DNA of 64,000 bases, taken from the sequence record MN850647.1. The stretch is one strand, 5' to 3'. The position numbers were made by a program, and so were the translations under genes. This DNA comes from Escherichia phage tootiki. Below are positions 17,269 to 48,644 of the stretch, in pieces; position 1 is the stretch's first letter; every line of letters begins with the position of its first letter. Under the pieces are notes generated by a model, which saw only the letters and a program-made list of their open reading frames with translations, was not told where the DNA came from and searched no databases.

Positions 17269-17275
17269 ATTAATT

Positions 17276-17699: not shown

Positions 17700-17717
17700 C
17701 CTAATAAGACTTTGGCA

Positions 17718-18280: not shown

Positions 18281-18294
18281 GATTTCTCCAAAAT

Positions 18295-18699: not shown

Positions 18700-18701
18700 A
18701 T

Positions 18702-18778
18702 TGGAGGTTCAGGTGGGATTCAAACCCACATTCATAGGGCTTATGAAACCCTTGCATTACCTTATCTGCGACTGAACC
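18702..18778 (-). tRNA. tRNA-Met (anticodon CAT)
   Basis: acceptor GGTTCAG/CTGAACC, anticodon stem AAGGG/GCCCT loop TTCATAA, T-arm GTGGG-TTTGAAT-CCCAC. Confidence 0.65.
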
Positions 18779-18783
18779 ATTTT

Positions 18784-18859
18784 TGGTAGAAGTGGAGGGA
18801 TTCGAACCCATCGCCTGTCAGATTAAAAGTCTGCCGCATCACCATTCTGCTACACTTCC
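18784..18859 (-). tRNA. tRNA-Lys (anticodon TTT)
   Basis: acceptor GGAAGTG/CACTTCT, anticodon loop CTTTTAA, discriminator A; T-stem ATGGG/CCCTC imperfect. Confidence 0.55.
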
Positions 18860-19010
18860 ATTAAATCATCTTTGCAGTAACCTACGCAGACCTTGCTAAA
18901 GGGTCTGTAGAGTCATTTCATATTAAGCTAATCTAGAATCATACTAAGGAAATTCATCGGCACTCATGGGACGACATAATTAGCCACATAAGCTACTGCA
19001 AAGATAATTA

Positions 19011-19141
19011 CCAGACCGTTGTTTATCATCTTAAGTGCTACCATTACACCAACTCGACCTCTGCCGAGTGAAGGAATCGAACCTTCGCCTTTTCTTTACC
19101 GAGAAATAGATTGTTTAAGTTTTGCTGTAAACGGTCTTCTG
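19011..19141 (-). ncRNA. structured spacer module a: terminal inverted repeat enclosing a tRNA-like T-arm and D-arm-like segment
   Basis: minus strand CAGAAGACCG...CGGTCTGG ends pair; internal GAAGG-TTCGATT-CCTTC and AGTTGGTGTAATGGTAGCAC; no anticodon arm. Confidence 0.4.
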
Positions 19142-19154
19142 TAAATTTGTTGAG

Positions 19155-19230
19155 CCAGACCAAGTTTTAAATTTTTCAAAATTGAATTGGCTTGAAAATA
19201 TCATACATTCTTGCTGTATTTGGTCTTCTG
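19155..19230 (-). repeat. spacer module b (CCAGACCA...TGGTCTTCTG inverted-repeat unit)
   Basis: same terminal inverted repeat as module a. Confidence 0.4.
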
Positions 19231-19291
19231 CTCCTTTAAAGAATACTCGTAAGAACTCTTTAAGGGAGGGGCTAAATAGCCCTCTCAAAAT

Positions 19292-19368
19292 TGGCGGCTA
19301 CGATGAGACTTGAACTCAAATCATCTCCCGTGACAGGGGAGTATTTTCTCCAGTTAAACTACATAGCC
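19292..19368 (-). tRNA. tRNA-Asp (anticodon GTC)
   Basis: anticodon stem CTCCC/GGGAG loop CTGTCAC, acceptor GGCTATG/CGTAGCC, discriminator G. Confidence 0.7.
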
Positions 19369-19373
19369 TTTAT

Positions 19374-19461
19374 TGGTGTGCCGTGTAGGAGTCGAACCTA
19401 CCGAGTCTCAATGACAAGGGATTTACAGTCCCCACCGCTACCATCTACGGGATAACGACAC
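19374..19461 (-). tRNA. tRNA-Tyr (anticodon GTA), class II
   Basis: T-arm GTAGG-TTCGACT-CCTAC, anticodon loop CTGTAAA, about 15 nt variable arm, discriminator A. Confidence 0.7.
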
Positions 19462-19469
19462 ATTTAATT

Positions 19470-19546
19470 TGGCGGTTAGTCAGGGATTCGAACCCTGTGC
19501 CATTCGCTTAACAGGCGACCGCACATACCTTATGTGCTTCCTAACC
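19470..19546 (-). tRNA. tRNA-Asn (anticodon GTT)
   Basis: D-stem GCAC/GTGC, anticodon loop CTGTTAA, T-arm CAGGG-TTCGAAT-CCCTG, discriminator G. Confidence 0.65.
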
Positions 19547-19557
19547 TTAATACATTG

Positions 19558-19618
19558 CCAGACCGTGTTTTTTCTTTTATCCGCAAAAAAGTATTTTGTT
19601 GCTGAATACGGTCTTCTG
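19558..19618 (-). repeat. spacer module c (CCAGACCG...CGGTCTTCTG inverted-repeat unit)
   Basis: same terminal inverted repeat; internal GCAA/TTGC hairpin. Confidence 0.4.
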
Positions 19619-19624
19619 CAAAAT

Positions 19625-19701
19625 TGGAGGCGGGTGCAGGAGTCGAACCTGCCGATACCATGCTAATGAGACATGTGAGACGCCCTTTCTCTATACCCGC
19701 A
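19625..19701 (-). tRNA. tRNA-Met (anticodon CAT), second copy with 1-72 mismatch
   Basis: T-arm GCAGG-TTCGACT-CCTGC, D-stem GAGA/TCTC, anticodon stem CATGT/GCATG loop CTCATTA; T1-C72 unpaired. Confidence 0.55.
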
Positions 19702-19712
19702 ATTCTCAATGA

Positions 19713-19784
19713 CCAGACCAAATATCTTCTTTGTCCGATTTCGTGTCAGATGAGTAGATTAAGTTTGCTGTAATTGGTCTTCTG
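19713..19784 (-). repeat. spacer module d (CCAGACCA...TGGTCTTCTG inverted-repeat unit)
   Basis: same terminal inverted repeat as modules a-c. Confidence 0.4.
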
Positions 19785-19791
19785 TCAAAAC

Positions 19792-19869
19792 TGGCGTTCC
19801 AGAAGGGATTTGAACCCTCAGATATCCACTTTGAAAGAGTGGTGACTTTACCATTTTGTCTACTGGAAC
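19792..19869 (-). tRNA. tRNA-Glu (anticodon TTC)
   Basis: acceptor GTTCCAG/CTGGAAC, anticodon stem CCACT/AGTGG loop CTTTCAA, discriminator G. Confidence 0.7.
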
Positions 19870-19876
19870 ATTAATT

Positions 19877-19953
19877 TGGTCTCTGTTGGAGGACTTGAAC
19901 CTCCGGCCTTACCGCCCCAAACGGAATGCTCTACCAAGCTGAGCTAAACAGAG
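19877..19953 (-). tRNA. tRNA-Pro (anticodon TGG)
   Basis: acceptor CTCTGTT/AACAGAG, D-stem GCTC/GAGC, anticodon loop TTTGGGG, T-arm GGAGG-TTCAAGT-CCTCC. Confidence 0.65.
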
Positions 19954-29232: not shown

Positions 29233-30348
29233 TTATAAAATTTTATCGGTTGTCCCAACCTCTGGGTCACCATCATATGTGAATAAAATATCTACCCTTC
29301 TTAACAACCTTCTTAATCTTACTCTCTATATAGTTATATAGTACTATATAGTATCTTAGTAACTATCTAGTGGTCTTAATAGCCCTCTGTATAGCCCTTC
29401 TAAATAGCCTTCTAAACACTCTTCTAACAAGCCCTCTTAACCACCTATACAATCACCTTAACCATCCCTCTACACCCTCTTAGAAGCTCCTATACACCTC
29501 TTAATCTCTAGGTTAGCTATGGCACTCTCTATAGGTGTTCACTAGGTAATACTAAGCCTCTATATAGACTGTTTTAACAAACTTAACAGGAATATCTTTA
29601 CAGACCTTACCTCACAAGGTCTAACACGGTACTAACAAGGTATCTTGTAAGCCTGTTTCTACCTGTATTTTTAAAAGACTGTATAGGTAATTATTCAGAA
29701 TTTTAAAATTTTTATAAAATAGGACTATCAAGTCATTTTTTAGGGTCTTTGAAGGAACTGAAAAATATCTGTCTAGGATGTATATCTGCTTGGTAGCCCT
29801 TAACAGCTCCCTTACAAGTACTTTGCAAAATTTTAAAATATCCTTAACAATCTCTTAACAGTTCTCACATCTTCTTAACAACTCTTCAAAGGTCTTAACA
29901 GATTCTTAACAGAACTAACAAGGCTGTAACAGTTTCTTAACAGTTGATACATAATCTTTACAGAGGCTTAACAGATGACTAACAAGAGCTAACAAGTTAA
30001 TTTTAAAGAGTTATTTTGTTAAGATTATTAACAAGTTTCTAACAAGTCTTTAATCTTTTTAACAAGCTATTAACATGGTCACTATCTCTTTCTTATCGTT
30101 CCCTTTCCTTTCTTAGTGATTCTTTAAACATACCTCTTAAAAGCTCTCTATAGCTCTTTATAAGCTCTTTTAAGTCTCTTCCTAGTAGTTACACCCCAAC
30201 TGTACAGATAGCTCTCTATAGGGCTTTACAGGAGCTTTTAAGGCTATGTCAAAGACTCTTACAAGGCTTTTACGTGGTCTTAACAGAGATTTAACAAGGG
30301 GCTAACAAGTTGCTAACAAGTGTCTTAAAAGCATAACTATGTAGGGAT

Positions 30349-30380
30349 TGTTAAGAAATTGTTAAGAAAATGTTAAGGGG
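30349..30380. repeat. three inverted-orientation iterons (TTGTTAAG)
   Basis: TTGTTAAGAAATTGTTAAGAAAATGTTAAGGG; reverse complement of the upstream TAACA iteron. Confidence 0.6.
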
Positions 30381-30393
30381 GCTAGTATTTACG

Positions 30394-30443
30394 TAACTTT
30401 TAAGCTACTTCAAAATAACTTTTAAGCTACTTCAAAATAACTT
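30394..30443. repeat. 23 bp perfect tandem direct repeat (2 copies)
   Basis: AACTTTTAAGCTACTTCAAAATA repeated back to back. Confidence 0.7.
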
Positions 30444-30767
30444 TATAGCCCCCTTCTTAGATATTCACAAGATAACTAATGAGATGATAAAGCTTACACC
30501 CTTATAAGATTCTTTTAAGGCTCTGGGAAGCTTTATAAAGGGCTTTTAATGGTGAGGTAATGCAATCCCTTAAGTTAGGTTAATAAGGTCGTTATAGGGC
30601 TTTATAGAGCGTTTAAATGGTTGCCCTTCCCTTTCGGGTTATGGGCTTATATTTAAGTTGATTTGATAAGGGGCTATAGAGTAAGCTATAGAGTTATTGT
30701 TTTTTAAGGTCTGATAAGATTCTGGAAAGGAAAGGGAAAGGGTTGTATAAGGGATTTGATAAGACGT

Positions 30768-30790
30768 AAAAAAGCCCCATATAAAGGGGC
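30768..30790 (-). terminator. intrinsic terminator after minus-strand small-gene block
   Basis: minus strand GCCCC-TTTATAT-GGGGC followed by TTTTTT. Confidence 0.55.
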
Positions 30791-30829
30791 TGTAAAGGTA
30801 TCTGGGGCTATTTAGCCCCGTTGCGGCGT

Positions 30830-31078
30830 TTAGTTAGTGCCTTCTTTGTCGTAGTACAAGGAGACAATTTTTTCACCCCAGTAGTGGTATGTATAACCCT
30901 CTTTGAGAACTTCCTCTTTTGTTTCTTTCCAGAATTCATCAGAGGGGTTGTAGTCACTGATGGTCTGGCTGATAAGGCCTTTCACCATTTCAAAGGCGTT
31001 ATCAGTACCTACAAGGTCAAATTTAACGTCCAGAGAGTAGAAGCCAAATTCGTTAACAGTTGCGCGGATAGTAGCCAT
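30830..31078 (-). CDS. hypothetical small protein
   Basis: 82 aa; preceded by type A cassette. Confidence 0.5.
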   Translation of the reverse strand: MATIRATVNEFGFYSLDVKFDLVGTDNAFEMVKGLISQTISDYNPSDEFWKETKEEVLKEGYTYHYWGEKIVSLYYDKEGTN

Positions 31079-31154
31079 TTTAGAATCTCCAGTTTAGGAA
31101 GTTGATTAAGGGTTTTGTTTAGCGGGGAAGGTCATTCCCTCCCCGTTGATTGAC

Positions 31155-31183
31155 AATTTACAGACTTTTGATTGTTTCGTCAA
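31155..31183 (-). promoter_or_regulatory. sigma70-like promoter within type A cassette
   Basis: minus strand TTGACG, 17 nt, TAAATT, followed by 5' hairpin and GGAGA RBS. Confidence 0.5.
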
Positions 31184-31688
31184 TATCTTTTTCAATATCT
31201 TTTAAAGTTTTTTCTAAGTTCTTGATATTGAAAGATAAACCTTCTCCCAGTGTCTTAGAGTAACCGCTAGGACGTGAGTCATATAGTTCAATTTCTTCTA
31301 CTTCGAAGAGGCTAACCAACTCACCGCTTACACTGTAAGCCATTGAAACAGTATTTACAGGGGCTTTATAAAACTTGTTTAAGGACTTGATAGAACGTTC
31401 ATAAGCCATTTTATAGCTATTTAAAAGGTTTTTAACGTGGCTGTGAACGTTTTTACACTCATCTAAATAAAGACCTAAAAACATCGGGAGAAGTTCCGCG
31501 ACAGCTTGCATAAAGTGAGAGACTACAACGGTTGCAACATTACGACGATGAACGTAATAAGCCCCGTTTTCTGATTTGGTAATGGTTGCAAAGTGTACCC
31601 CATTACAACGAAATTCATAGGTATCTTTAACAGGCTTAGACATTACATTATTTGAACGAATATAGTTGATAGCTTTGAACTTGTTCAT
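31158..31688 (-). CDS. hypothetical protein
   Basis: start moved to ATG (MNKFKAINY) preceded by conserved GGAGATTCTAAA leader. Confidence 0.5.
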   Translation of the reverse strand: MNKFKAINYIRSNNVMSKPVKDTYEFRCNGVHFATITKSENGAYYVHRRNVATVVVSHFMQAVAELLPMFLGLYLDECKNVHSHVKNLLNSYKMAYERSIKSLNKFYKAPVNTVSMAYSVSGELVSLFEVEEIELYDSRPSGYSKTLGEGLSFNIKNLEKTLKDIEKDIDETIKSL

Positions 31689-31910
31689 TTTAGAATCTCC
31701 TAGTTTAAGGACTTTACTTAGTAGGGAGGTTATTGCCTCCCCGTTGATGAGTAATTTACTTGTTTTGATATCTGATTGCAAGCAATTTTTTAAGTTTATC
31801 TATAAAGAATCTTTTAAGTTAATCCCTTTTAGATAAACCCCCTCGAACAAATCTACCAATGTCAAGGGGCGTTGTCAATACTTTTTTGAAAGTTTTTTGT
31901 AAGTTATTGA

Positions 31911-32252
31911 TTAACTGATGAATATTTTTTCAGGTTTTACATAGCTGATACGCTGACTTTTTAGCAGGTCATCCCAGATTAACGCGGCGATATGGGCATA
32001 ACCGGATTCACGTAAAAGCTTCATTGTTTTACTTCTCGTTTCAAAACGGCTTGCGTAGTACTCACTATTTAAAACCGTTTTATTCCCTTCGTTATCTACA
32101 TGGATAATCTGCATCACTTGAAAGGGGCTTGTGTCCTCGCCTTTGTTCCACTGTTCAAAGTATTTTAGGCACTGCATAGGTGACATCTTATCACTTACTT
32201 GAGTTGACCAAGATGAATTTTCTTTATCGGTAATTACGGTTACATAAGCCAT
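31911..32252 (-). CDS. hypothetical protein
   Basis: 113 aa; conserved leader upstream. Confidence 0.5.
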   Translation of the reverse strand: MAYVTVITDKENSSWSTQVSDKMSPMQCLKYFEQWNKGEDTSPFQVMQIIHVDNEGNKTVLNSEYYASRFETRSKTMKLLRESGYAHIAALIWDDLLKSQRISYVKPEKIFIS

Positions 32253-32317
32253 TTTTGAATCTCCTAGTTTAAGGATTGTACTTAGTGGGGAAGGTCATTC
32301 CCTCCCCGTTGATTGAC

Positions 32318-32346
32318 AATTTACAGATTTTTATCAGGCTTGTCTA
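32318..32346 (-). promoter_or_regulatory. sigma70-like promoter within type A cassette
   Basis: minus strand TAGACA, 17 nt, TAAATT. Confidence 0.45.
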
Positions 32347-32577
32347 GTCTTTTTCAATGATAATTTCATACTGACCATCTACGCTGTCAAAATAGATACC
32401 GTCTTCATCTTCTGTCTTAAAGTAACATTGTATATCATCACTAGCGGGATAGTCTTGTCTTGCTATCTGACAGACCTGAACAGCATTTTCTTTACTTCCT
32501 GTAAACTCCTCAAGCCCTTTAAAATCACATGAATGACCATTACAAATAGAAAGGATAAGATAAACGGTTGTAAGCAT
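32344..32577 (-). CDS. hypothetical small secreted or membrane protein
   Basis: 77 aa with hydrophobic N-terminus. Confidence 0.45.
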   Translation of the reverse strand: MLTTVYLILSICNGHSCDFKGLEEFTGSKENAVQVCQIARQDYPASDDIQCYFKTEDEDGIYFDSVDGQYEIIIEKD

Positions 32578-32643
32578 GATTTAAGCCTCTTAAAAGCCCC
32601 TGTGAGGGGCTAATCAGTGTTTATAAGGTGATTGCATAGGTTT

Positions 32644-33186
32644 TTAGAAAAAGCTCTTTAAATCTCTCTCTGTGATGTTTCCCGCTAGTGTATCCATGAT
32701 GTCACAAAAAACCTGAATACTATCCGACTGTTGAATACTTTTAGCAAGAAGCTCCAGAGACTCATCAAGATAATTTAAATTTGGGTTATCCAATGAAGGA
32801 AGACAAAAAGGCGAAAACATCGCATTAAACTCGGTTACGTAAACCTTTTTAATCCAATTTAAATCGAAGTATTCTGTAAAACTTGCTACGCCAGACATAT
32901 TATCACAAGAATAATCATCATTCAGGTCATCCTCTGGGATATCAAGTTCTAAGATAACAATATTTTGGGTTTTCATCTGGAAAGCGGCCGTAATAGTGGC
33001 ATTACCTAACGCTTGCTGGATGCCTTCGGCTGTTATCTCTTCCTCATCGTCGCCATAGATTTTATTTTCTGGATACACGTAAAAATTGCCGTCCATGTCC
33101 GAACAATTCCATGCACCTGATGGCTTGTCACCGTTATTAATCAGGTTGAGGAAATTTTCTTGAGTAGTACCGTGAAAGCATTTCAT
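32644..33186 (-). CDS. hypothetical acidic protein
   Basis: 180 aa; type B cassette upstream. Confidence 0.5.
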   Translation of the reverse strand: MKCFHGTTQENFLNLINNGDKPSGAWNCSDMDGNFYVYPENKIYGDDEEEITAEGIQQALGNATITAAFQMKTQNIVILELDIPEDDLNDDYSCDNMSGVASFTEYFDLNWIKKVYVTEFNAMFSPFCLPSLDNPNLNYLDESLELLAKSIQQSDSIQVFCDIMDTLAGNITERDLKSFF

Positions 33187-33200
33187 TTTTGAATCTCCAG

Positions 33201-33275
33201 TTTAGGATTTAGTGGTAAAGCTCTTTATCTGGGGCTTACTTTATCGAACTATAAGCCCCTTGTAAAGTACTTTAT
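33201..33275. repeat. type B cassette copy 1 (about 75 bp, near-identical to 34004-34078 and 36060-36134)
   Basis: TTAGGATTTAGTGGTAAAGCTCTTTATCTGGGGCTTACTTTATCGAACTATAAGCCCCTTGTAAAGTACTTTAT. Confidence 0.7.
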
Positions 33276-33475
33276 TTGTTATTTTTTACTACTTTTAAAA
33301 CCGCACGATAGCCTAAGCAATAGGAATCACCGAAGAGCGACCGACCCATGAAGGAGTCCTCTGTAATATCTTTCGCCGTGACGGTTTTTTCTACGCCGTG
33401 AAAGAGAACTACATCACCGACTTTAATATCTTTGATGTGTGTAGTTTCAATGGTTAAACCGTTAATAATAGCCAT
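33272..33475 (-). CDS. hypothetical small protein
   Basis: 67 aa beginning MAII. Confidence 0.45.
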   Translation of the reverse strand: MAIINGLTIETTHIKDIKVGDVVLFHGVEKTVTAKDITEDSFMGRSLFGDSYCLGYRAVLKVVKNNK

Positions 33476-33538
33476 TTTTGAATCTCCAGTTTAGGACTTT
33501 ATTTAGTGGGGAAGGTCATTCCCGCCCCGTTGATGTGT

Positions 33539-33567
33539 AATTTAATCTATCTGAAAACCAATGTCAA
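33539..33567 (-). promoter_or_regulatory. sigma70-like promoter with upstream A15 tract
   Basis: minus strand A15 then TTGACA, 17 nt, TAAATT, then GGGGCGGGAATGACCTTCCCC hairpin and RBS. Confidence 0.55.
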
Positions 33568-33583
33568 CAATTTTTTTTTTTTT

Positions 33584-33988
33584 TTAGAGTTCTGCATAAA
33601 TTGCATCACAGATACCACGAAAATCATGATTTGTCAAATTACGTTGTAACCAAGTGGCGAAAAAGTCAGCGATTGCAAAGTTAGCGTCATACTCGACAGA
33701 TAGCCACACTTTAACAGCAAACCGAAACATTTTCAAATCAAGCTCTTTATTCATTACCTTAGATTTGCCTAACATGTCGGACATTTCATATTGTGCACCG
33801 TCTAGCGTGATACCTGCTGCAACGTCAGCCAATGAGTTTTTTACGTTTTCAACGTCTAAGATAACGCTTTGAATCTTCCCAATAATGTTGTGCAATGTTT
33901 CGTCCGGTGCTGATGACGTAATAACATTAATCCGGTTAACGGTCAAACGTGCTTTTAAGATTGATAACTCGCGATTATTAATAGCCAT
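33584..33988 (-). CDS. hypothetical protein
   Basis: track start is a TTG inside the conserved leader; ATG start (MAINN) follows GGAGA. Confidence 0.5.
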   Translation of the reverse strand: MAINNRELSILKARLTVNRINVITSSAPDETLHNIIGKIQSVILDVENVKNSLADVAAGITLDGAQYEMSDMLGKSKVMNKELDLKMFRFAVKVWLSVEYDANFAIADFFATWLQRNLTNHDFRGICDAIYAEL

Positions 33989-34003
33989 TTTTAAGTTCTC
34001 CAA

Positions 34004-34078
34004 TTTAGGATTTAGTGGTAAAGCTCTTTATCTGGGGCTTACTTTATCGAACTATAAGCCCCTTGTAAAGTACTTTAT
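34004..34078. repeat. type B cassette copy 2
   Basis: near-identical to 33201-33275. Confidence 0.7.
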
Positions 34079-34347
34079 ACTAAATGCAGCTTTTTACCTT
34101 TTACTATGATGTAACTCGATGCGCTATTGCTTTGCACATCCTGATAAATTCTGCGCAAACGGCCTTCGTAGTATACTTTCCAACTGGTTGGAATCTTTTT
34201 CCCGTATCCTGTAGCAGTTTTTTGTAGTCCTGCAAGTTGCCAATCTAAGATATGTTGTTCGGCTTGTAAATCCTCGAAGTGCATTACACCGTTCACATAG
34301 TGACGAAGGGTTATGTTTAAGGTGCGACCGTTGTTAGTAGTATACAT
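34075..34347 (-). CDS. hypothetical protein
   Basis: 90 aa. Confidence 0.45.
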   Translation of the reverse strand: MYTTNNGRTLNITLRHYVNGVMHFEDLQAEQHILDWQLAGLQKTATGYGKKIPTSWKVYYEGRLRRIYQDVQSNSASSYIIVKGKKLHLV

Positions 34348-34434
34348 TTTGAATCTCCTAGTTTAAGGACTTTGTTTAGTGGGGAGGTCATTACCTCCCG
34401 TTGATTAGTAATTTACTTGTTTTAAAAACCAAAA

Positions 34435-34767
34435 TCAAGAGAAATTTTTTCGTTTGCTCAATTCTTGAACAATTACAGCGTAGTAGTCTTTTAAGTCACT
34501 GACATTTAAAGCATTTATCAGAGAATTATAATCATCGACTAACTGAAAATCATCTTTGAAAATGTCGCTGATTTGATAAGTTTTTGATTGAAATCTGAAG
34601 CTCATTTCTAGCCGCTTTATTTGCTCATCACTGAGGCGCCCTAGAAAGCTTTCTACAAGGTTATTGCTAACCTGCTGTGTGATTGCCTTATTTGCTAGAT
34701 TATAGGCTTTATATGCCTTATATAGCGCGAAAATGGCAATGATTGCAGTGATACCAGTCATTAACAT
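34435..34767 (-). CDS. hypothetical membrane protein
   Basis: 110 aa with N-terminal TM helix. Confidence 0.45.
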   Translation of the reverse strand: MLMTGITAIIAIFALYKAYKAYNLANKAITQQVSNNLVESFLGRLSDEQIKRLEMSFRFQSKTYQISDIFKDDFQLVDDYNSLINALNVSDLKDYYAVIVQELSKRKNFS

Positions 34768-35057
34768 GGTGTTTCCTCTTTACGTGATACTTTGCCATTT
34801 ACAGTTATCTCATAAGAATCTAGTAAGTCACTTTTAGACTTTACTGGACTTTTAAAAGTATCATCATAAATATTTACTTGCAATACAGGTTTTTTATACT
34901 CCCTGCAACTATTCCATAAGCAAATCACTACGCGACGGCCTTTTATTTTGCCGTGCAACCATTCCATAACATCATGATTATTTCTTGATGTCTCGATAAA
35001 ATCAATTTTGTTGAGTAATTTGCTCAGATTTTCACGCACTTGATTTGATAATTTCAT
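34761..35057 (-). CDS. hypothetical protein
   Basis: 98 aa. Confidence 0.45.
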   Translation of the reverse strand: MKLSNQVRENLSKLLNKIDFIETSRNNHDVMEWLHGKIKGRRVVICLWNSCREYKKPVLQVNIYDDTFKSPVKSKSDLLDSYEITVNGKVSRKEETPC

Positions 35058-35149
35058 TTTAGAATCTCCTAGTTTAAGGGCTTTATTTGATAAATCTCTT
35101 TATCTGGGGCTATCTTACCAGCTTGATAACCCCGTGTAAAGAAATCTAT

Positions 35150-35662
35150 TTAGTTCTTAAAGATATTCATCACTGAGTCTTTCAACGATTCCAAACGTTC
35201 TAATACTTCAGTTTCTGCGTCTGAATTGTTCACCTCTTCTTTTAGTCTATCTTCTAAATCCTCACCGTCACTATAGCACCAATCGAAAGCGTAACCAATA
35301 TAAAAGCTGTCTAAAACCGTTTTACCGTTTGCATCTACAACTTTCGCGGCAATGTTATACTCTGAAGCTTCTAAATCTCTTTCTAGTTCTTCCTGTAAGC
35401 TTGCGTAAGCCTCTTTTGATGGATTTTCCCGGCCTTGTTTTGCATAGTCACTAGAAAGCTGCTTAAGGCTGTAATGTAAAGGGATTGCATATTTAAAATC
35501 ATTACGCTGACAGTTAGGATTTTTAATCGTCACACCACCTTGATGGTCATCTGTAAACTTCCAATTATCAAGATTATGGCTTGCTTCAAAGCAATTTACC
35601 GCTTCATAGATAATGGTGAATTTTTCTTTTACAACTTCAAAAGTAGCGTCTACAGTTTTCAT
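35150..35662 (-). CDS. hypothetical acidic protein
   Basis: 170 aa. Confidence 0.5.
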   Translation of the reverse strand: MKTVDATFEVVKEKFTIIYEAVNCFEASHNLDNWKFTDDHQGGVTIKNPNCQRNDFKYAIPLHYSLKQLSSDYAKQGRENPSKEAYASLQEELERDLEASEYNIAAKVVDANGKTVLDSFYIGYAFDWCYSDGEDLEDRLKEEVNNSDAETEVLERLESLKDSVMNIFKN

Positions 35663-35747
35663 TTTTGAATCTCCAATTTAGGATTTAGTGGTAAAGCTCT
35701 TTATCTGGGGCTTAAGATATCAACTTTTAAACCCCATGTAAAGTACT

Positions 35748-36041
35748 TTATTTGTTAATTTTCAGCTTTGCATAACTTCTCATTGTACGAATGGTGGATG
35801 TTAATGCTACGCGTCTAATGTATGCCTTTTTCGTGTATACATTTGTCTTCCCGATAGTGTTTACACATGTAAAAAGGTTTATCGGTGAATTTTTTAACTT
35901 CAACTGTTTATCAGCCTTCACGCCCCACCTTACAGCAGATTGTTTTCCGTTGTCAACCACTTTCCCGCATAACTTTTTAGCCATAACGCGAGCGTCATCA
36001 CGAGTTTTTGCAGCAATTACAACGTTTTTGATAATAGCCAT
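35748..36041 (-). CDS. hypothetical protein
   Basis: start moved from leader TTG to ATG (MAIIK). Confidence 0.45.
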   Translation of the reverse strand: MAIIKNVVIAAKTRDDARVMAKKLCGKVVDNGKQSAVRWGVKADKQLKLKNSPINLFTCVNTIGKTNVYTKKAYIRRVALTSTIRTMRSYAKLKINK

Positions 36042-36059
36042 TTTTAAGTTCTCCAATTT

Positions 36060-36134
36060 AGGATTTAGTGGTAAAGCTCTTTATCTGGGGCTTACTTTAT
36101 CGAACTATAAGCCCCTTGTAAAGTACTTTATTTA
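36060..36134. repeat. type B cassette copy 3
   Basis: near-identical to 33201-33275. Confidence 0.7.
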
Positions 36135-36334
36135 TCGTAGTAGTAAATTGCTGTCTGTCTTGTAAACTTCTTAGTATTTCTTGTCAGATAGCAATTAGAA
36201 TTAATAGCCGTTTCTACATAGTTGCAATAGTCAGCTTCTGATATTCTAGACCATACGCCACAGATTTGCATGTAAAAACGTTTTACCTTTGTGTGAATGT
36301 TAGTTGTAACCATCAATTCGCGACTGTACAGCAT
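36128..36334 (-). CDS. hypothetical Cys-containing small protein
   Basis: 68 aa; conserved leader upstream. Confidence 0.45.
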   Translation of the reverse strand: MLYSRELMVTTNIHTKVKRFYMQICGVWSRISEADYCNYVETAINSNCYLTRNTKKFTRQTAIYYYDK

Positions 36335-36584
36335 TTTTAGATTCTCCAGTTTAGGAAGTGGGCTTGATTGCCCGTCTGATGCAGATATTAGATAACTATA
36401 CTCAAAGAGTCAATAGGAATTTTAAAAATATTTTTTGCAAAAATTGTAATGAAACGGGTGCGCGCGACTACCACAAAACAGAACTACAATCAAGAATTAT
36501 TTTTCAATCCGCTACAAATTTTTCTGTTGACTTTTATTTCCAGATGTGGTAGCCTTGTGAGAAATGGCGACATCCCCACCTGTA

Positions 36585-36780
36585 CCCACCTACCTGCACA
36601 ATTCTAAAATGATTTTTCTTGCCCGACCTGAGCGGGGTCTGCACGTTTTGAAAATGAAAAAGCTCTTTGGAGATTACCTGCACAGTTTAAAAATGAATTT
36701 TCTCTTTGGAGTTCAAAATTCTCTCTACAGATTTCTCTACAGAACTCTACCTGCACAAATCTGAAATGAAAAAGCCCTCC
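36585..36780. repeat. direct repeat array (ACCTGCACA box with AAAATGA(A/T)TTTTC, 3-4 copies)
   Basis: copies at 36591, 36675, 36748 with degenerate copy at 36638; repeated TCTTTGGAG. Confidence 0.6.
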
Positions 36781-36842
36781 TTACCTGAAAAATTTACCAG
36801 ATAAGAAAGGCTTAGGCTATTGTGAATATCCTACAGAGTTTC

Positions 36843-37628
36843 TTAGTTCTTTGCGTCTAAGAAGGTAACTTCTGGTGAAGAGAAAACTGTCTCGATATCC
36901 TCATCAGTTCTTGCATAGATATAAGTATCTGCATCACTGCCAAATGTTACTGCAATCCTGTGATTGCTCTTCGACAGGTGGGTAACTAGAGCGTTACTCA
37001 GAGACATCTTTTCAACCGGAGGGTTACTTTGATGTATCTTACCTTTTCTTCGTCTGAAGAGGGTAACTGCGTTATCTGTGAACACTGCTACACCTGCAAA
37101 GTATTCTGGTTCACAGTAGTTCTTCCAACCTGAGCGTAACTTGTGGTACATCTCTCCTTCGTAGACATAAAGATACACATCTACACTCTTCATCACCTGA
37201 TTAATGATAACTGTGACGGCTTGAGGGTCTAGCCCACCGATACCTGCACCAATCATAGGTAAACCAACCTTCTTCAACTGGTTGACTTCACAGTATCTGT
37301 TAAGCTGCTTCAAAGATGACTCTAAAGCACTGTATCGGGCATCTTTACCAGTCTTAAGCTGAGTGTAAAGGTTAGCTATACGGCCTTGTTCTAAACGTGC
37401 TACAGAGAAATTACCCAGTAAATTTTCACAGGGTTTGTGACCTATACCACCTGCATAGAGGTAAACTTCTGTATCGGTCTCATATGCTTTTGGGTAAAGT
37501 TTAGAAATCTTGTCAGCGATACCTACACCCATTAAATTCATACAGTTGCAACCGTGACCAATAATATCAAACTTACCTTTATCAAATGCTGAGAAGATAT
37601 CCCCATTGATGATTTTTACAATACCCAT
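36843..37628 (-). CDS. macro-domain-like protein (ADP-ribose binding or hydrolase candidate)
   Basis: 261 aa; NGDIF, DIIGHGCNCMNLMGVGIA and LPMIGAGIGG resemble macro-domain GDIT, NAAN..GGGV and ISTG.YG motifs. Confidence 0.45.
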   Translation of the reverse strand: MGIVKIINGDIFSAFDKGKFDIIGHGCNCMNLMGVGIADKISKLYPKAYETDTEVYLYAGGIGHKPCENLLGNFSVARLEQGRIANLYTQLKTGKDARYSALESSLKQLNRYCEVNQLKKVGLPMIGAGIGGLDPQAVTVIINQVMKSVDVYLYVYEGEMYHKLRSGWKNYCEPEYFAGVAVFTDNAVTLFRRRKGKIHQSNPPVEKMSLSNALVTHLSKSNHRIAVTFGSDADTYIYARTDEDIETVFSSPEVTFLDAKN

Positions 37629-39129: not shown

Positions 39130-39148
39130 TTAACAATCTCCTGAAATG

Positions 39149-39170
39149 AAAAAGGCTCCCGAAGGAGCCT
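39149..39170 (-). terminator. intrinsic terminator (GGCTCC-TTCG-GGAGCC family)
   Basis: minus strand AGGCTCCTTCGGGAGCC followed by TTTTT. Confidence 0.6.
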
Positions 39171-39175
39171 GTGTA

Positions 39176-39988
39176 TTATTCTTGACTGTAATAGTTGACA
39201 AGTGAAATCGCTTGATTCATCAACAACTTATCAGCCTGTGCTCCGCGACCAGCTTGTAATGCCAGTTGGTATACCTCTGTAACATATTTGTTAGACATAC
39301 CTTCACAGTAGTCATTATAGTCTTCCCAAAAGGAAAATGCAGCATCACCATATAGGCGTAGTGTAATTAACATTGCTGCACGAATCCCAGAAGAATATTT
39401 CCGTTTTGCGTTTACTACACCTTTAAGCTGTACTTCAAGAGAATCAATTTGTTCCAGCTCATTTTTAAAGTCATTAAGATATTTAACTGTTTCAGTGTTA
39501 GAGACCTGTTGTACACCGTAGTATGCAGCAACATATTTAATAGCAGTTGCCCAAGATGCTTTCATCAGTTCTGACTCTGGGTTGAAAGAAATCATCTTCA
39601 TATTTCCGTAATAAACTTCTGAAGGTTTTTCTCTTGCTAACTCAGAGTCAAAATGAGTGTACAAATCTGTGACATCCAATATGGAGTTCACATGGTATAT
39701 AACTGCAATCAAGTTTTCTGGTCGTGTCAGGTTACCAACTTTCCATGCCTCTCGACGTGAGTGCCCATCAATGATGAACAGTGAACTGCCGAACTTAGCT
39801 ACATGGACTACTGTTTGGTCTGGTGATACGTCACCATTAAGGTGTTTACTTTTCAGACGCTTAAGTGTATTTCGTTGACGAGGGTTTTCTTTGTAACGTT
39901 TTTCATTAAGAAAATCCTCGACACTGATAATCTTAGTGTGAATTTTAACAACCTTGCCATTCAGTGCTACATTGATGCTGTTTGCCAT
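39176..39988 (-). CDS. ParB-like nuclease domain protein
   Basis: 270 aa; FIIDGHSRREAW resembles ParB/Srx DGxxR box. Confidence 0.45.
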   Translation of the reverse strand: MANSINVALNGKVVKIHTKIISVEDFLNEKRYKENPRQRNTLKRLKSKHLNGDVSPDQTVVHVAKFGSSLFIIDGHSRREAWKVGNLTRPENLIAVIYHVNSILDVTDLYTHFDSELAREKPSEVYYGNMKMISFNPESELMKASWATAIKYVAAYYGVQQVSNTETVKYLNDFKNELEQIDSLEVQLKGVVNAKRKYSSGIRAAMLITLRLYGDAAFSFWEDYNDYCEGMSNKYVTEVYQLALQAGRGAQADKLLMNQAISLVNYYSQE

Positions 39989-40884: not shown

Positions 40885-40901
40885 TAGTACTCCTTGAATT
40901 T

Positions 40902-40923
40902 AAAAAGGCTCCCGAAGGAGCCT
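40902..40923 (-). terminator. intrinsic terminator (GGCTCC-TTCG-GGAGCC family)
   Basis: minus strand hairpin followed by T-run. Confidence 0.6.
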
Positions 40924-40934
40924 GTATCTTAACC

Positions 40935-41399
40935 TTAACCGAGGACTTTAGCAAGGATATTTGCAGCCATCGAAGAAGCTTTTGCAGCAGCAGCTACCCC
41001 AGCTTTGACAGTGCTATCCTTGATAGCAGATACCGTTGCAGCATCAGTAAAGAGATAAGTAGTTGTTTTAGAACCACTTGTAAAGGAAAGCATGAGAGCA
41101 GTTTCCAGATTGAAAGAGCGATACGGAGCACCTTCTTTAACAATACCTTCAGCACCTAATTCTGAAGCCATCCCCATATCATAGATAGTCATCAGGTTTT
41201 CTTTGTGTGCTGTCGTTGAGCCAGAACCTTTTACGTGTTTCTTAACATTCAAAAGAGCGCGATACTCTCGAACGTTACCATCTGCTTTTACGTTGACAGC
41301 ACGGAAGATTTTACCCTCAAAGTTGTTCTTGATAATGTTACGAACTACTTCAGATTTGTTTGCCGTGACGTCCAGTGCTACCGTAATGATATTGTTCAT
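40935..41399 (-). CDS. hypothetical protein
   Basis: 154 aa, Ala-rich C-terminus. Confidence 0.45.
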   Translation of the reverse strand: MNNIITVALDVTANKSEVVRNIIKNNFEGKIFRAVNVKADGNVREYRALLNVKKHVKGSGSTTAHKENLMTIYDMGMASELGAEGIVKEGAPYRSFNLETALMLSFTSGSKTTTYLFTDAATVSAIKDSTVKAGVAAAAKASSMAANILAKVLG

Positions 41400-46809: not shown

Positions 46810-46826
46810 AGTTTTCTCCAGAAATT

Positions 46827-46848
46827 AAAAAGGCTCCCGTAGGAGCCT
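46827..46848 (-). terminator. intrinsic terminator (GGCTCC family)
   Basis: minus strand AGGCTCCTACGGGAGCC followed by TTTTT. Confidence 0.6.
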
Positions 46849-46862
46849 CTTATCATATACTT

Positions 46863-48644
46863 TTAAAGCTGCTTGTCAATATTATTTCGAATATCACCAA
46901 GAGTTGTGTAACCAAACTGCTCAGAGTCACTAAAGACTAAACGTAAAGCACAAGCTGGGTGGTCAAGTACATCTGCAAAACTCTGGAATCCGTAGCCATC
47001 TACAGCTTTCAACTTATCACCATCCCACATAGGCGCTACACCACCAAAGGCAGATTTCTTAACACCACTATCTGTTTTAGGGTCTTTTGCAAGCATAATC
47101 TCTTTGCCACCAATGCTTGCAAGAGTTGCTTTGACAGCAAATGCAAAGGTGTCACGAGTCATGTACTGGTAAGTGTAAGAGCCTACACCAAACACCACGT
47201 TAGAGCTTGCAAACCCCATTTCATACAGACGCTTCAGGATTTCGTTTGCACGTTCCAGCGTGATAGAGTCACCATAGATAAGTCCGATATGCTCATCCAG
47301 TACCTTAAACCCTTTAGAGTTAATAGTTCCCCCAAAAATGTTGTACAGTGTCTTAATAGCTCCATCAATCTCAGCTACAGGACGTGTTACAACGTTTGCA
47401 GAACCAACCATATAAGCATTTTTCAACATCACTGTATCAGCAACTTCAAAGTCTTCTCTGTCAACAACCATTTCGTAGCCTTCTGACAGTAGCCATCCAG
47501 CAATACCATAGTTGATATTTTCAAGCTTCATGTTCAGAACAGCATTCAACATTGTGTCACTGGCTTCCAGCTTGCTTAGGTGCTCGTAATAAGCCTTTTT
47601 AGCACACTCTAAGTGGATTGCTTTATAACCTGTGACAATATGTACAGGGTCTCCAGAGTCAGGACGAATTACCAGTTTGCCATCACGTTCCATAATTTCT
47701 TTACGAAGTGCTGGTAAAATTTCTGACACAGTTCTCCAGAAGTTATAAGTGTCTGAAACAACACTTGCAATACCAGTTGGGTAAGTTTCTGTTAAGAAAC
47801 GACGGAAGGTTTGTAACTCACCTTTAAAGCGTCTTTCTTCTTCAATCAACTCATTACCACCTTCCCAAGCAATGTTTGCACACATTACAGAGTGCTCAGT
47901 GGCTGGTACAGAGCTACCAATATCAGAGATTGGGTAGGACTGTCCATAGATTCGTTTAGCCGTATACACAGCAGGGAAGCTATCAGTTCCTTTAAAGCTG
48001 GTTAAGTGGCCTACAGCGTTAAATGCGTCATCAGTAAAGCCGGACATACCACGCATAGCAAAGTCATGGCACTGATAAGGCAAATGCAAGTCGTTGTCAC
48101 AAGTAAGGTCAGTCCACTTCTTACAGATACGTTTGTAGTGCAATGCAATAGTTGCAATGGTACAAGCCTTCCAAATCTCAGCAGAGAAAGCATCTTCCAG
48201 ATACCCCGCTACCCAATGGAAGCCTGAAACAGTGTTCTGGAAGACAATCATTGGGACGCGCATAGGGACAACTGTACCTTCTTCTACAGCGTATACTTCA
48301 ACTGGTAGATAACCTAAGTCGTGAAGTGCTTCCCAGTGCTCTCGACCGATAGCATCTTTACCCAGAACACCATTCATGACTTCTAAGATTTCATCAATGG
48401 CTTCTTTTTTATCACGTTCAAAGAAAGTGGCGTTCCAGTGGTCTATCAAGTAATCTTTAACGAAACGTTGAATACCAAAAGCCACTACACCGTCAATTGC
48501 CAAAGGGCTGTTAAACCATTTATCACTACGTGGTGTCAGGTTCAACATAAGATATTGCGTAGCATCTGGATACTGATATATATGTGATGCCTTGTAAGCA
48601 TCTGCATTAAGACCTGCTGGTACTGCGTAAAGTGATTTAGTCAT
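46863..48644 (-). CDS. nadV: nicotinamide phosphoribosyltransferase (NadV/NAMPT-like)
   Basis: 593 aa; N-terminal NADAYKASHIYQYP matches NAMPT DSYKVTHYKQYP signature. Confidence 0.65.
   Translation of the reverse strand: MTKSLYAVPAGLNADAYKASHIYQYPDATQYLMLNLTPRSDKWFNSPLAIDGVVAFGIQRFVKDYLIDHWNATFFERDKKEAIDEILEVMNGVLGKDAIGREHWEALHDLGYLPVEVYAVEEGTVVPMRVPMIVFQNTVSGFHWVAGYLEDAFSAEIWKACTIATIALHYKRICKKWTDLTCDNDLHLPYQCHDFAMRGMSGFTDDAFNAVGHLTSFKGTDSFPAVYTAKRIYGQSYPISDIGSSVPATEHSVMCANIAWEGGNELIEEERRFKGELQTFRRFLTETYPTGIASVVSDTYNFWRTVSEILPALRKEIMERDGKLVIRPDSGDPVHIVTGYKAIHLECAKKAYYEHLSKLEASDTMLNAVLNMKLENINYGIAGWLLSEGYEMVVDREDFEVADTVMLKNAYMVGSANVVTRPVAEIDGAIKTLYNIFGGTINSKGFKVLDEHIGLIYGDSITLERANEILKRLYEMGFASSNVVFGVGSYTYQYMTRDTFAFAVKATLASIGGKEIMLAKDPKTDSGVKKSAFGGVAPMWDGDKLKAVDGYGFQSFADVLDHPACALRLVFSDSEQFGYTTLGDIRNNIDKQL

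Follow-up and report, generated by a model that had tools for sequence, protein, structure and literature searches.

The window, a 64,000-nucleotide stretch of the Escherichia phage tootiki record MN850647.1, belongs to a Felixounavirus (a Felix O1-like phage, subfamily Ounavirinae). The region considered here is a minus-strand array of small genes with no assigned function, for which we use running labels. It consists of w9 (36128–36334; 68 aa, phrog_5293), w10 (35748–36041; 97 aa, phrog_5089), w11 (35150–35662; 170 aa, phrog_4190, the homologue of Felix O1 ORF16), w12 (34761–35057) and the overlapping w13 (34435–34767), which together span 34435–35057, then w14 (34075–34347; 90 aa), w15 (33584–33988; 134 aa, phrog_4327, the homologue of Felix O1 ORF20), w16 (33272–33475; 67 aa) and w17 (32644–33186; 180 aa, phrog_3303). 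All are of unknown function, and Pfam and PHROGs returned a function for none of the cassette-flanked genes. The presence of these genes differs among relatives (w10, for example, is missing in the Felix O1 record FO1a, Alf5, LNA1, LF82P2, LF82P3, and LF82P5), and w17 occurs in relatives as two very divergent alleles (about 66% vs. 89%–94% nucleotide identity). A type A-like cassette lies ahead of w14, and a type A cassette ahead of w16.

Five other gaps are each occupied completely by one copy of a second repeat, the type B cassette, also on the minus strand. Copy 1 (33187–33274) runs from the w16 stop codon TAA (33274–33272) to the base before the w17 ATG (33186), copy 2 (33989–34077) from the w14 stop codon TAA (34077–34075) to the base before the w15 ATG (33988), and copy 3 (36042–36130) from the w9 stop codon TAA (36130–36128), which is thus inside the cassette, to the base before the w10 ATG (36041). 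Copy 4 (35663–35750), which is diverged and has the class II loop GGGGTTTAAAAGTTGATATCTTAAGCCCC, fills the w10/w11 gap, and copy 5 (35058–35152), the most diverged of the five, fills the w11/w12 gap. All five are stop-to-start spacers of 85–92 nt, ahead of w10, w11, w12, w15, and w17.

A preliminary description of this DNA reported three near-identical direct repeats of about 75 bp, and exact comparison shows that the three copies are in fact 100% identical. The coordinates given for the first two are correct (33201–33275 = 34004–34078, 75 nt). The third copy exists, but not at 36060–36134, where identity is only 23%; pairwise alignment gives 100% once it is re-registered by 3 nt, to 36057–36131. 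The longest exact match is 75 nt between copies 1 and 2, 77 nt between copies 1 and 3 (33201–33277 = 36057–36133), and 100 nt between copies 2 and 3 (33979–34078 = 36032–36131), the last taking in the Shine-Dalgarno (SD) sequence and ATGGCTATTA. Two diverged family members had been overlooked. The 21-nt core CCCCAGATAAAGAGCTTTACC finds five sites at no more than three mismatches, all on the minus strand (0.00 expected, 100 shuffles); the two additional cores are at 35742–35692 (copy 4, about 84% identity over a 128-nt repeat family) and 35140–35091 (copy 5, about 66% identity over a 53-nt repeat family). The same 75–100 nt recur as direct repeats, every 0.4–2 kb.

Read on the gene strand, the cassette (about 88 nt) comprises the upstream stop codon, a hairpin with a promoter-like site, a conserved leader with the SD motif GGAG, and the start codon ATG of the gene that follows. 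This anatomy is conserved. In a set of 80 cassettes drawn from 20 genomes, 78 have the stop codon of the preceding gene 0–7 nt from the first base of the cassette, with the cassette's own TAA, inside its first arm, serving as that stop in 35, and the ATG follows 87–91 nt downstream in 76. The hairpin has about 20 bp, made up of a 12-bp outer stem, a 3 × 3 internal loop, and an inner GGGG...CCCC stem of 8–9 bp. In copy 1 (33216–33274, minus strand), the outer stem pairs 33274–33263 with 33227–33216 and, past the 3 × 3 internal loop, the inner stem pairs 33259–33252 with 33238–33231; the predicted energy of the whole hairpin is −24.3 kcal/mol (z = −4.1), and GGAG at 33195–33198 (minus strand) is 8 nt ahead of the w17 ATG. 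The five copies share one predicted long-hairpin fold (−24 to −28 kcal/mol, z from −3.6 to −4.1). Copy 5, in which the inner hairpin is GGGGTTATC..GATAGCCCC, carries a compensatory G-C to U-A change in the outer stem.

The cassette hairpin is supported because its stems covary. Over 38 distinct variants, 93.7% of cells pair, compared with no more than 55% when the partners are slid, and four stem pairs have changes on both sides, including the outer-stem G-C to U-A replacement. In Erwinia phage phiEa21-4, the inner stem has changed on both sides, from GGGG/CCCC to GGTG/CACC. Many one-sided stem changes retain G·U pairs on the gene-sense strand only. It is this covariation that disposes of a reading in which conserved TAAAG-NN-CTTTA inverted repeats, one on each flank of the inner hairpin, serve a phage regulator as a pair of operators for switching off early transcription, the apparent long stem being a by-product. 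Such a reading has in its favor that TAAAGTACTTTA is a perfect, highly conserved 12-bp palindrome over the −35 element, and that TAAAGAGCTTTA, at about +3 to +15, is also highly conserved. However, in the w11>w12 class the sites, TAGATTTCTTTA and TAAAGAGATTTA, are no longer palindromic, and the arms are still complementary by way of the G-C to U-A double change and G·U pairs. Selection has been for the stem and not for independent palindromes, and we give paired operators almost no credence.

What the hairpin might do in RNA is a guess, because there is no U-tract after the stem (AGAUAAAGAG comes after the inner stem and CCACUAAAUCC after the outer one) and because a terminator consensus scan did not place any of the five copies among the terminator-like sites found. 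On the same two grounds, an intrinsic (rho-independent) terminator was ruled out. An Rfam scan of 30000–37500 at E ≤ 1 gave no matching family. The geometry (12 bp, 3 × 3 loop, 8–9 bp, specific to the sense strand) would suit an RNase III processing site of the T7 early type, for which about two turns of double-stranded RNA with an internal loop are expected.

All five copies carry TTTACA, a 17-nt spacer, and TAnnnT, in the arrangement of a promoter. The −35-like TTTACA, which is invariant in the 38 variants, is at 33261–33266 in copy 1 and at 34069–34064, 36122–36117, 35742–35737, and 35140–35135 in the others (all minus strand). The −10-like hexamer is TAAAGT in copy 1 (33238–33243, 17 nt after TTTACA) and in copies 2 and 3 (34046–34041 and 36099–36094, minus strand), TATCTT in copy 4, and TAAGAT in copy 5. 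We consider a putative promoter to be supported because the invariant bases include unpaired ones: C13 and A14 of TTTACA are in the internal loop, and T32 and A33 are in the terminal loop, where adjoining bases vary freely. The spacing from TTTACA stays fixed at 17 nt even where the loop sequence has been replaced wholesale, and loop classes II and III carry a TGn extended −10. It should be noted that the −10 hexamers are poor, with 9 of 12 positions matching overall, that a simple promoter scan of this AT-rich region returns 36 promoter-like sites compared with 20.9 in shuffles, and that some of the −35 hexamer, like the final −10 base, sits in stems, which leaves two possible reasons for the conservation of these bases. 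A near-consensus TTGACA-N17-TAAATT is present in the type A cassettes of this array, with a hairpin downstream of it. Felix O1 ORF16 and ORF20, directly after this repeat, reach maximal expression at 5 min by RT-PCR timing; a literature search gave no mapped transcription start or RNA 3′ end for any Felix O1-like phage.

These observations bear on the possibility that the cassette is an RNA element with no promoter, such that one long early RNA from a distal promoter is punctuated by hairpins acting as RNase III-type sites or 3′ stabilizers, and recombination is incidental. Covariation and sense-strand G·U pairs in an interrupted 20-bp hairpin with a 3 × 3 loop are what would be expected, as are the poor −10 hexamers and a TTTACA that is partly in the outer stem; cassette hairpins would also resemble the RNase III sites of the T7 early region. 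However, pairing does not explain the invariance of C13, A14, T32, and A33, nor the constant 17 nt to TTTACA despite loop replacement, nor the TGn of classes II and III. The 5-min peak of Felix O1 genes behind a cassette also speaks against it, and the near-consensus type A elements suggest that per-gene promoters would be the rule in this array. Overall, we regard an RNA element lacking a promoter as unlikely.

A T4 MotA-type middle promoter, read into the leader as GCTTTA-N11-TAAATT, was considered and rejected on the MotA-box consensus. Its start would fall after the SD sequence, and proteins that alter the specificity of the polymerase are not reported in the accessible part of the Felix O1 genome paper (Whichard et al. 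2010, PMC3185647).

The cassette family occurs in 288 phage records, at 1366 places, and all of these are Ounavirinae save for a few oddly labeled records. Within the genus, concerted evolution was tested by shuffling the hairpin alleles of each position across genomes; there were 15 identical within-genome pairs compared with 16.05 expected (p = 0.74). Because this test is negative, the identity of the three copies in the window reflects a common allele that is held at those positions genus-wide, and recent homogenization in this genome was dropped as an explanation. The between-genus pattern is the one that supports exchange among paralogous cassettes. Some alleles are private (Mordin-only ×4, phiEa21-4-only ×2, and FO1a-only ×2), and class I and class II loops are swapped at orthologous sites. 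The unique loop of FO1a was considered as a chimera left by deletion of w10, but its class II-like and class I-like halves are in the reverse of the predicted order.

The preliminary description had also proposed that the repeats are substrates for recombination that deletes or duplicates the genes between them, and that deletion variants might be sought in related genomes. The three junctions that such deletions would leave were constructed and compared with 50,697 phage records. All three deletion products exist in sequenced relatives, each as one contiguous match holding a single cassette of canonical length (85–89 nt); duplication of the intervening genes was not seen. The w14-cassette-w17 junction is in Felixounavirus LF110P2, the w9-cassette-w15 junction in LF82P2, and the w9-cassette-w17 junction in LF82P3 and two LF82P5 records. 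In LF110P2, the cassette at the junction matches the window repeat exactly and is bordered by the w14 flank on its one side and by that of w17 on its other; the apparent switch point is inside the identical core. Identity between LF82P3 and LF82P2 is 99.6% up to the cassette and 92% past it.

Gene content is mosaic at the scale of single genes. Differences between the window and its closest relative run gene by gene, and BLAST breakpoints against 13 relatives cluster on cassettes. The nested indels in FO1a, Alf5, LNA1, DaR-2019b, and BPS15Q2 are all cassette-bounded. The fullest array, w9-B-x2-B-w10-B-w11-B-w12 (B being the cassette), is that of DaR-2019b and BPS15Q2; relative to it, the window lacks x2, FO1a lacks x2 and w10, LNA1 lacks w10 and w11, and Alf5 lacks x2, w10, and w11. 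Every variable adjacency in the type B part of the array has one complete cassette of 84–91 nt, with neither gene remnants nor truncated cassettes, except in one genome, apparently Mordin, whose w9>x2 spacer is 143 nt, and in DR094, which has a 161-nt tandem. At two junctions (w9>w10 in the window and w9>w12 in Alf5), the apparent switch point is not reached until the SD/ATG edge. From the clean junctions, we infer homologous recombination as the mechanism. For comparison, the Felixounavirus Bas63 recombines efficiently with 95- to 100-nt homology arms, given Cas9 and RecA assistance.

Gene content varies as well in the adjoining cassette-free block w3–w8. For this reason, the idea that the repeats are a route to rapid gene turnover holds for the cassettes as one such route but not as the sole one. 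The same variability could be taken to mean that cassettes are conserved and play no causal part, with illegitimate breaks arising anywhere, selection keeping those that fall between genes, and some deletions being assembly errors. The negative within-genus test of concerted evolution would fit, as would DR094, in which a 3,234-nt block is gone and the tandem 77-nt copies look like an untrimmed contig join. Yet random breaks followed by selection should leave ragged spacers rather than single complete cassettes, and the w9-B-w17 order is common to LF82P3 and LF82P5, which are distinct genomes (down to 90% identity further along). Nor can assembly explain the stepwise changes in divergence at cassettes, and Felix O1, which was Sanger sequenced, has cassette-bounded absences. 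We therefore think it decidedly unlikely that cassettes are bystanders to these rearrangements.

DR094 requires separate treatment. Its flanks are 99.95%–99.98% identical to those of DaR-2019b, with 3,234 nt missing, and at the junction the 77-nt maximal repeat stands twice in exact tandem, both copies being kept. This pair had looked like the strongest case of a recent deletion but was set aside, as homologous recombination leaves no such tandem. A k-mer of 77 is a usual size for assemblers. Short-read assemblers can mis-join at repeats of k-mer length, and DR094 carries that exact signature; a k = 77 assembly join is the better explanation, yet we treat the case as ambiguous. If it is not an artifact, the junction would be the footprint of a precise excision in which both repeats were retained.

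Precise excision is what would be expected of an integron-like, site-specific system in which the hairpin repeats are attC-type sites around single-gene cassettes, acted upon by a phage or host recombinase. The gene-hairpin-gene-hairpin layout and the exact coincidence of cassette edges with stop and start codons fit such a system, and the same idea was floated by the authors who described the promoter-early stem-loop (PeSL) cassettes of T4-like phages for their GGGG...CCCC stem-loops. However, the apparent switch points differ (the core in LF110P2, the SD/ATG edge in the window and Alf5), the k = 77 join explains DR094 better, and the accessible part of the Felix O1 genome paper names no integrase among the assigned functions. 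A site-specific system of this kind is, in our view, extremely improbable.

The explanation that we favor, and consider probable, is that the type B cassette is a conserved linker that places a promoter within a hairpin at each small early gene and also serves as a recombination joint. As DNA, the cassette would allow host RNA polymerase to initiate at every small gene individually, shortly after infection, from an embedded sigma-70-type promoter (TTTACA-N17-TAnnnT). As RNA, in read-through transcripts, the hairpin may mark the cistron boundary in a processing, 3′-end-protecting, or attenuating role. As direct repeats of 75–100 nt, cassettes would permit homologous recombination to cross over between nonallelic positions, so that whole genes could be lost, gained, or swapped with the neighboring expression signals undamaged. 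The preliminary description is supported as regards recombination, but on this explanation the sequences are first of all conserved regulatory linkers, and more than repeats. We also considered the cassette as a portable stop-hairpin-promoter-start module that either is actively mobilized, with integron-like activity, or has a shared-leader geometry, and judge this to be very unlikely. Under active mobilization, a structure- or site-specific activity on the hairpin would excise single-gene circles that could be reinserted at any cassette. Under the shared-leader geometry, the internal loop's 3′ side would coincide with the predicted start, at about positions 44–47, and primary and RNase-processed read-through transcripts would therefore carry the same leader.

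Felix O1-type phages are common in the typing, biocontrol, and therapy of Salmonella and E. coli. If the linker model is correct, cassettes offer a concrete, testable answer regarding early transcription (one promoter-like site per small gene, inside a hairpin). They account for isolate-to-isolate differences in the left-arm array of genes of unknown function, and could serve as natural landing pads for engineering these phages. In addition, because the repeats are identical over 75–100 nt, short-read assemblies can drop or mis-join the genes between them.

Several known systems share features with the type B cassette. The early RNase III hairpins of T7 are likewise about 20 bp, interrupted by an internal loop, and placed between consecutive early cistrons on the sense strand; unlike type B, these sites have no promoters. 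Integron attC sites are also imperfect palindromes that bound single-gene units in tandem arrays. However, integron cassettes are usually promoterless and each type B cassette has its own promoter-like site; moreover, type B junction positions vary, and no recombinase or integrase surfaced in the analyses described here. In promoter-coupled terminators (Fletcher et al. 2026 preprint, 10.64898/2026.08.19.745784), the same DNA provides an upstream stem-loop and downstream promoter elements, as in type B. There, the stem-loop supplies the −35, the T-tract is the spacer, the −10 is downstream, and termination occurs about 10 bp before the start site, whereas type B has no T-tract and its 3′ hairpin arm reaches the predicted start site.

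The element itself has been seen before. The Felix O1 genome paper (Whichard et al. 2010, PMC3185647) lists a 57-bp direct repeat, CTTTACATGGGGCTTAAAAGTCTGTAAAGTAAGCCCCAGATAAAGAGCTTTACCACT, in the gaps 15/16 and 19/20 of its gene numbering, and this repeat is the type B cassette in its Felix O1 allele. The accessible part of the paper treats it as a repeat only; structure, promoter, function, distribution, and any connection with gene turnover go unmentioned there, and the organization of early transcription is stated not to be known. Neither promoters nor repeats come up in the wV8 paper, and the Felixounavirus comparative paper does not discuss the gene array.

Among known systems, the PeSL cassette of T4-like phages (Arbiol et al. 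2010, PMC2839356; Comeau et al. 2014, PMC4122927) comes closest to type B. Both are intergenic, about 70–100 nt long, and ahead of small genes with no known function, in early regions that are plastic; both combine a sigma-70-like promoter sequence (TTTACW-N17-TAYWAT in the T4/PST PeSL consensus) with a GGGG...CCCC stem-loop, an SD sequence, and an ATG; and both have many copies per genome, located at the edges of the indels and replacements that distinguish close relatives. They differ in lineage (type B being from Ounavirinae, with genomes of about 87 kb), and share no sequence past the promoter and SD consensus. The PeSL stem-loop is just upstream of the promoter, whereas in type B the promoter is inside a longer two-tier hairpin, whose outer arm and internal loop contain the −35 and whose inner stem and loop contain the spacer and the −10. 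The upstream stop codon belongs to the hairpin in type B, unlike in PeSL. For PeSL, experiments have demonstrated that the promoter and the terminator are active and that mini-circles form; in type B, the promoter is a prediction from sequence. The comparison extends the idea of regulatory linkers doubling as recombination joints beyond T4-like phages and to another architecture, and suggests that PeSL and type B cassettes arose by convergent evolution of one solution.

The window comes from a Felixounavirus, that is, a Felix O1-like myovirus infecting enterobacteria, and a 10-kb query retrieved 262 phage records, the top ones ~91%–93% identical. Its array of small genes, w9–w21 (30.8–36.3 kb, minus strand), has no Pfam domain in any member, and every gene is assigned to a PHROG family of unknown function. 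Type B cassettes, ~88-nt minus-strand linkers that run from a stop codon to the base before the next ATG, sit before w10, w11, w12, w15, and w17, each repeat lying between two array genes; a second cassette family, type A, sits before w14, w16, w19, w20, and w21. Elsewhere, 24 tRNA genes cluster at 14760–19953 on the minus strand (including two each of tRNA-Met, tRNA-Gln, tRNA-Lys, and tRNA-Ser, and three of tRNA-Leu), compared with 22 reported for Felix O1. Repeated AAAAAGGCTCCCGAAGGAGCC hairpins at 39142–39186, 40895–40939, and 46820–46864, with T-rich sequence after them when read on the opposite strand, match the canonical terminators t5 and t35 listed for Felix O1, and form a family separate from the cassettes. 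Just beyond the array end and the array terminator (30791–30773) lies a stretch present in one copy in the window (29790–30384) that matches, at 88% identity, the direct terminal repeat of 618 bp annotated for Salmonella phage UAB_69; short direct repeats at 30142–30177 and 30210–30245 fall within it. This is probably where the physical genome end is located, array transcription being directed towards it.

The preliminary description had reported three near-identical 75-bp direct repeats, and exact comparison bears this out at 100% identity among all three. The positions 33201–33275 and 34004–34078 were right (the two are the same at 75/75 positions), and the third was misplaced by 3 nt: 36060–36134 gives just 23% identity, and sliding it to 36057–36131 gives 100%. 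The exact match between the first and third copies is 77 nt, and that between the second and third is 100 nt (33979–34078 = 36032–36131), which includes the ribosome-binding site and ten initial coding bases. Searching the window for the 21-nt repeat core at ≤3 mismatches gives five occurrences, always on the minus strand, with none expected by chance; two of the type B copies are diverged (cores 35742–35692 and 35140–35091, minus strand). The unrelated genes w10, w15, and w16 (ATGs at 36041, 33988, and 33475, minus strand) have identical ten starting bases, ATGGCTATTA, encoding Met-Ala-Ile, so the homology common to neighboring cassettes reaches into coding sequence. This shared start could stem from crossovers that resolved within the first codons, or from selection on how translation is initiated.

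On the gene strand, the type B cassette can be read directly as TAAAGTACTTTACA-A-GGGGCTTAT-AGTTCGATAAA-GTAAGCCCC-AGA-TAAAGAGCTTTA-CCACTAAATCCTAAAYTGGAGA...ATG. Its linker anatomy is equally plain in spacer statistics for 80 type B cassettes (20 genomes): the stop of the upstream ORF is 0–7 nt from the first cassette base in 78/80, the cassette's own TAA is that stop codon in 35/80 (including four of the five window copies), and the next ATG is 87–91 nt downstream in 76/80. The predicted fold comprises a 12-bp outer stem, a 3 × 3 internal loop, an 8–9-bp inner stem, and an 11–13-nt loop, with energies of −24.3 to −27.6 kcal/mol (z = −3.6 to −4.1 versus shuffles). Within the hairpin is a promoter-like motif, sigma-70-like at the sequence level, consisting of TTTACA, exactly 17 nt, and TAnnnT; loop classes II and III carry an added TGn extended −10. 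The motif GCTTTA-N11-TAAAYT in the conserved leader (33199–33225, minus strand, and likewise in every type B copy), which we take to resemble a T4 MotA-box middle promoter, is considered non-functional because the predicted start would come after the SD.

Conservation of stem and promoter was measured on 38 distinct cassette variants. Stem cells pair in 93.7% of cases, compared with ≤55% when partners are slid. Both-side changes occur at four pairs, among them, in the outer stem, G-C replaced by U-A (eight variants) and, in Erwinia phage phiEa21-4, GGGG/CCCC replaced by GGTG/CACC (four variants); because the counts are modest and the sequences related, this covariation is support rather than proof. 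Many one-sided stem changes retain G·U pairs, which would be A·C mismatches on the opposite strand, and this points to a structure acting on the sense strand, most simply as RNA. TTTACA is invariant, including two unpaired internal-loop bases, as are the opening T and A of the −10 despite their position in the terminal loop, where adjacent bases change freely. Since a hairpin by itself would leave these constraints unaccounted for, and a promoter by itself the covariation, we conclude from the pattern of substitutions that selection acts on the predicted stem as well as on the predicted promoter positions. In Felix O1 RT-PCR, ORFs 16 and 20, which come next after this repeat, are among the genes maximal at 5 min.

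Type A cassettes (31106–31169, 31704–31767, 32269–32332, 33490–33553, and 34347–34399, minus strand) have TTGACA-N17-TAAATT; the predicted 5′ leader that follows contains a GGGGAGGGAATGACCTTCCCC hairpin, and the SD is that of type B. They also bound indels: FO1a is without w16–w19, between two type A cassettes, and several relatives carry an inserted gene, x4 (absent from the window), between w20 and w21. Directly upstream of the w16 type A promoter is a T15 run (33571–33585; A15 on the gene strand) that could be an UP-element-like A-tract and is likely a site of length variation or sequencing error.

Conservation across the subfamily is a direct observation: the 86-nt cassette is found at 1366 places in 288 phage records (~4.7 per genome), in Felixounavirus, Citrobacter Moogle/Mordin-type, and Erwinia phiEa21-4-type phages, as well as in a few records with odd labels. 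The most that annotated records show is, in Mordin, a 14-nt “repeat_region” ahead of the SD or, in AYO145A, a small number of generic promoters. The Felix O1 genome paper (PMC3185647) lists “two 57 bp direct repeats” that are exactly this cassette sequence, along with a repeat of 39 bp corresponding to the type A promoter; there the repeats go uninterpreted and the organization of transcription is called unknown. The wV8 paper makes no mention of promoters, repeats, or terminators, and repeats, intergenic regions, and recombination do not come up in the Felixounavirus comparative paper. A reading as promoter-hairpin linker or recombination joint was not found for Felix O1-type phages in the literature searched, which included the Felix O1 genome, wV8, and Felixounavirus comparative papers. 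The repeat has been published since 2010 without interpretation, and the linker concept has been known since 2010 from T4-like phages.

Gene presence and absence bounded by cassettes is directly visible in comparisons of the array with 13 relatives by BLAST, in which alignments break at cassettes again and again, and where one genome has a gene and the other does not, the flanking alignments overlap by a single cassette length. With B for a type B cassette and x2 for a gene absent from the window, the gene-and-cassette maps form a nested series: w9-B-x2-B-w10-B-w11-B-w12 in DaR-2019b and BPS15Q2, w9-B-w10-B-w11-B-w12 in the window, w9-B-w11-B-w12 in FO1a, w9-B-x2-B-w12 in LNA1, and w9-B-w12 in Alf5. 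The preliminary description had proposed that the repeats are substrates for homologous recombination that could delete or duplicate the genes between them, and had suggested looking for deletion variants in related genomes. We built the three deletion junctions predicted from the three identical copies and searched them in all phage records. All three are present in natural relatives as single contiguous matches, which supports the repeats as deletion substrates: w14-B-w17 in LF110P2 (w15 and w16 lost), w9-B-w15 in LF82P2 (w10–w14 lost), and w9-B-w17 in LF82P3 and two LF82P5 records (w10–w16 lost). Each junction, in the loci fetched, holds one 85–89-nt cassette. That of LF110P2 equals the window repeat exactly, lies between the w14 flank and the w17 flank, and at the sequence level is the exact predicted product of a crossover within the identical 75 nt. 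In two junctions the SD/ATG edge is the only place where an apparent switch can be seen, crossover points being fixable only with the true parents. An adjacent cassette-free block likewise varies in gene content, so cassettes are not the sole route of turnover.

It is important to note that identical repeats of 75–100 nt can mislead short-read assemblers. Compared with DaR-2019b, Salmonella phage DR094 is missing a 3234-nt, eight-gene block between flanks that are 99.95%–99.98% identical, and at 4148–4301 it has a 77-nt cassette unit in exact tandem, twice, with no gene between. The maximal exact repeat in DaR-2019b is 77 nt, and k = 77 is a commonly used assembler k-mer size. Instead of a real deletion, the DR094 junction may represent two contigs joined without trimming, with loss of the inter-repeat contig. 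Because an exact tandem is not a homologous-recombination product, and is perhaps such a join, DR094 was left out of the recombination evidence. What remains rests on no single assembly, with support from Sanger-sequenced Felix O1, arrangements common to distinct genomes, and divergence steps at cassettes.

Mosaicism at the scale of genes is also seen directly. Up to the cassette after w9, LF82P3 and LF82P2 share 99.6% identity, which drops to 92% past it. Across 17 relatives, the genome nearest to the window switches almost gene by gene (w10, LF110P2, 99.7%; w14, bumzen, 98.2%; w19, LF82P3, 99.1%; w21, LNA6, 100%). The gene w17 (32644–33186) shows ~66% identity in AYO145A, bumzen, and LF110P2, against 89%–94% in the remaining relatives, and w21 (30830–31078), identical in LNA6, is 67%–71% identical in five genomes; two such very divergent alleles among close relatives indicate allele replacement inside conserved flanks. 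A within-genus test for concerted evolution came out negative: the identity of the three copies reflects one allele that is common at all three positions genus-wide, not homogenization in this genome.

We propose that host RNA polymerase would initiate at about cassette positions 44–47 (gene strand, from the first cassette base), so that every small gene would have an early transcript of its own, and that in read-through RNA the hairpin would mark the cistron border. A classical terminator is unlikely because the hairpin is without a U-tract. General homologous recombination between cassettes would delete, insert, or exchange intervening genes. The Felixounavirus Bas63 recombines readily with 95–100-nt arms (Cas9/RecA-assisted), and in the laboratory it can do without about two-thirds of its genes. 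The cassette case is tidy, testable, and unsurprising.

The T7 early-region RNase III sites appear similar in geometry to the type B hairpin. Promoter-coupled terminators (2026 preprint, 10.64898/2026.08.19.745784) likewise make one stretch of DNA serve two uses, but with a T-tract and a geometry unlike that of type B. The closest analog is the PeSL cassette of T4-like phages, which comprises a sigma-70-like promoter (T4/PST TTTACW-N17-TAYWAT), a GGGG...CCCC stem-loop, SD, and ATG, is repeated across plastic regions and at indel borders, and for which mini-circle recombination was shown experimentally (PMC2839356; PMC4122927). One defining PeSL feature differs in type B, in that the stem-loop encloses the promoter rather than preceding it; the type B hairpin also holds the upstream stop codon, and its carriers are a phage lineage unrelated to the T4-like phages. 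Type B cassettes would nonetheless function like PeSLs.
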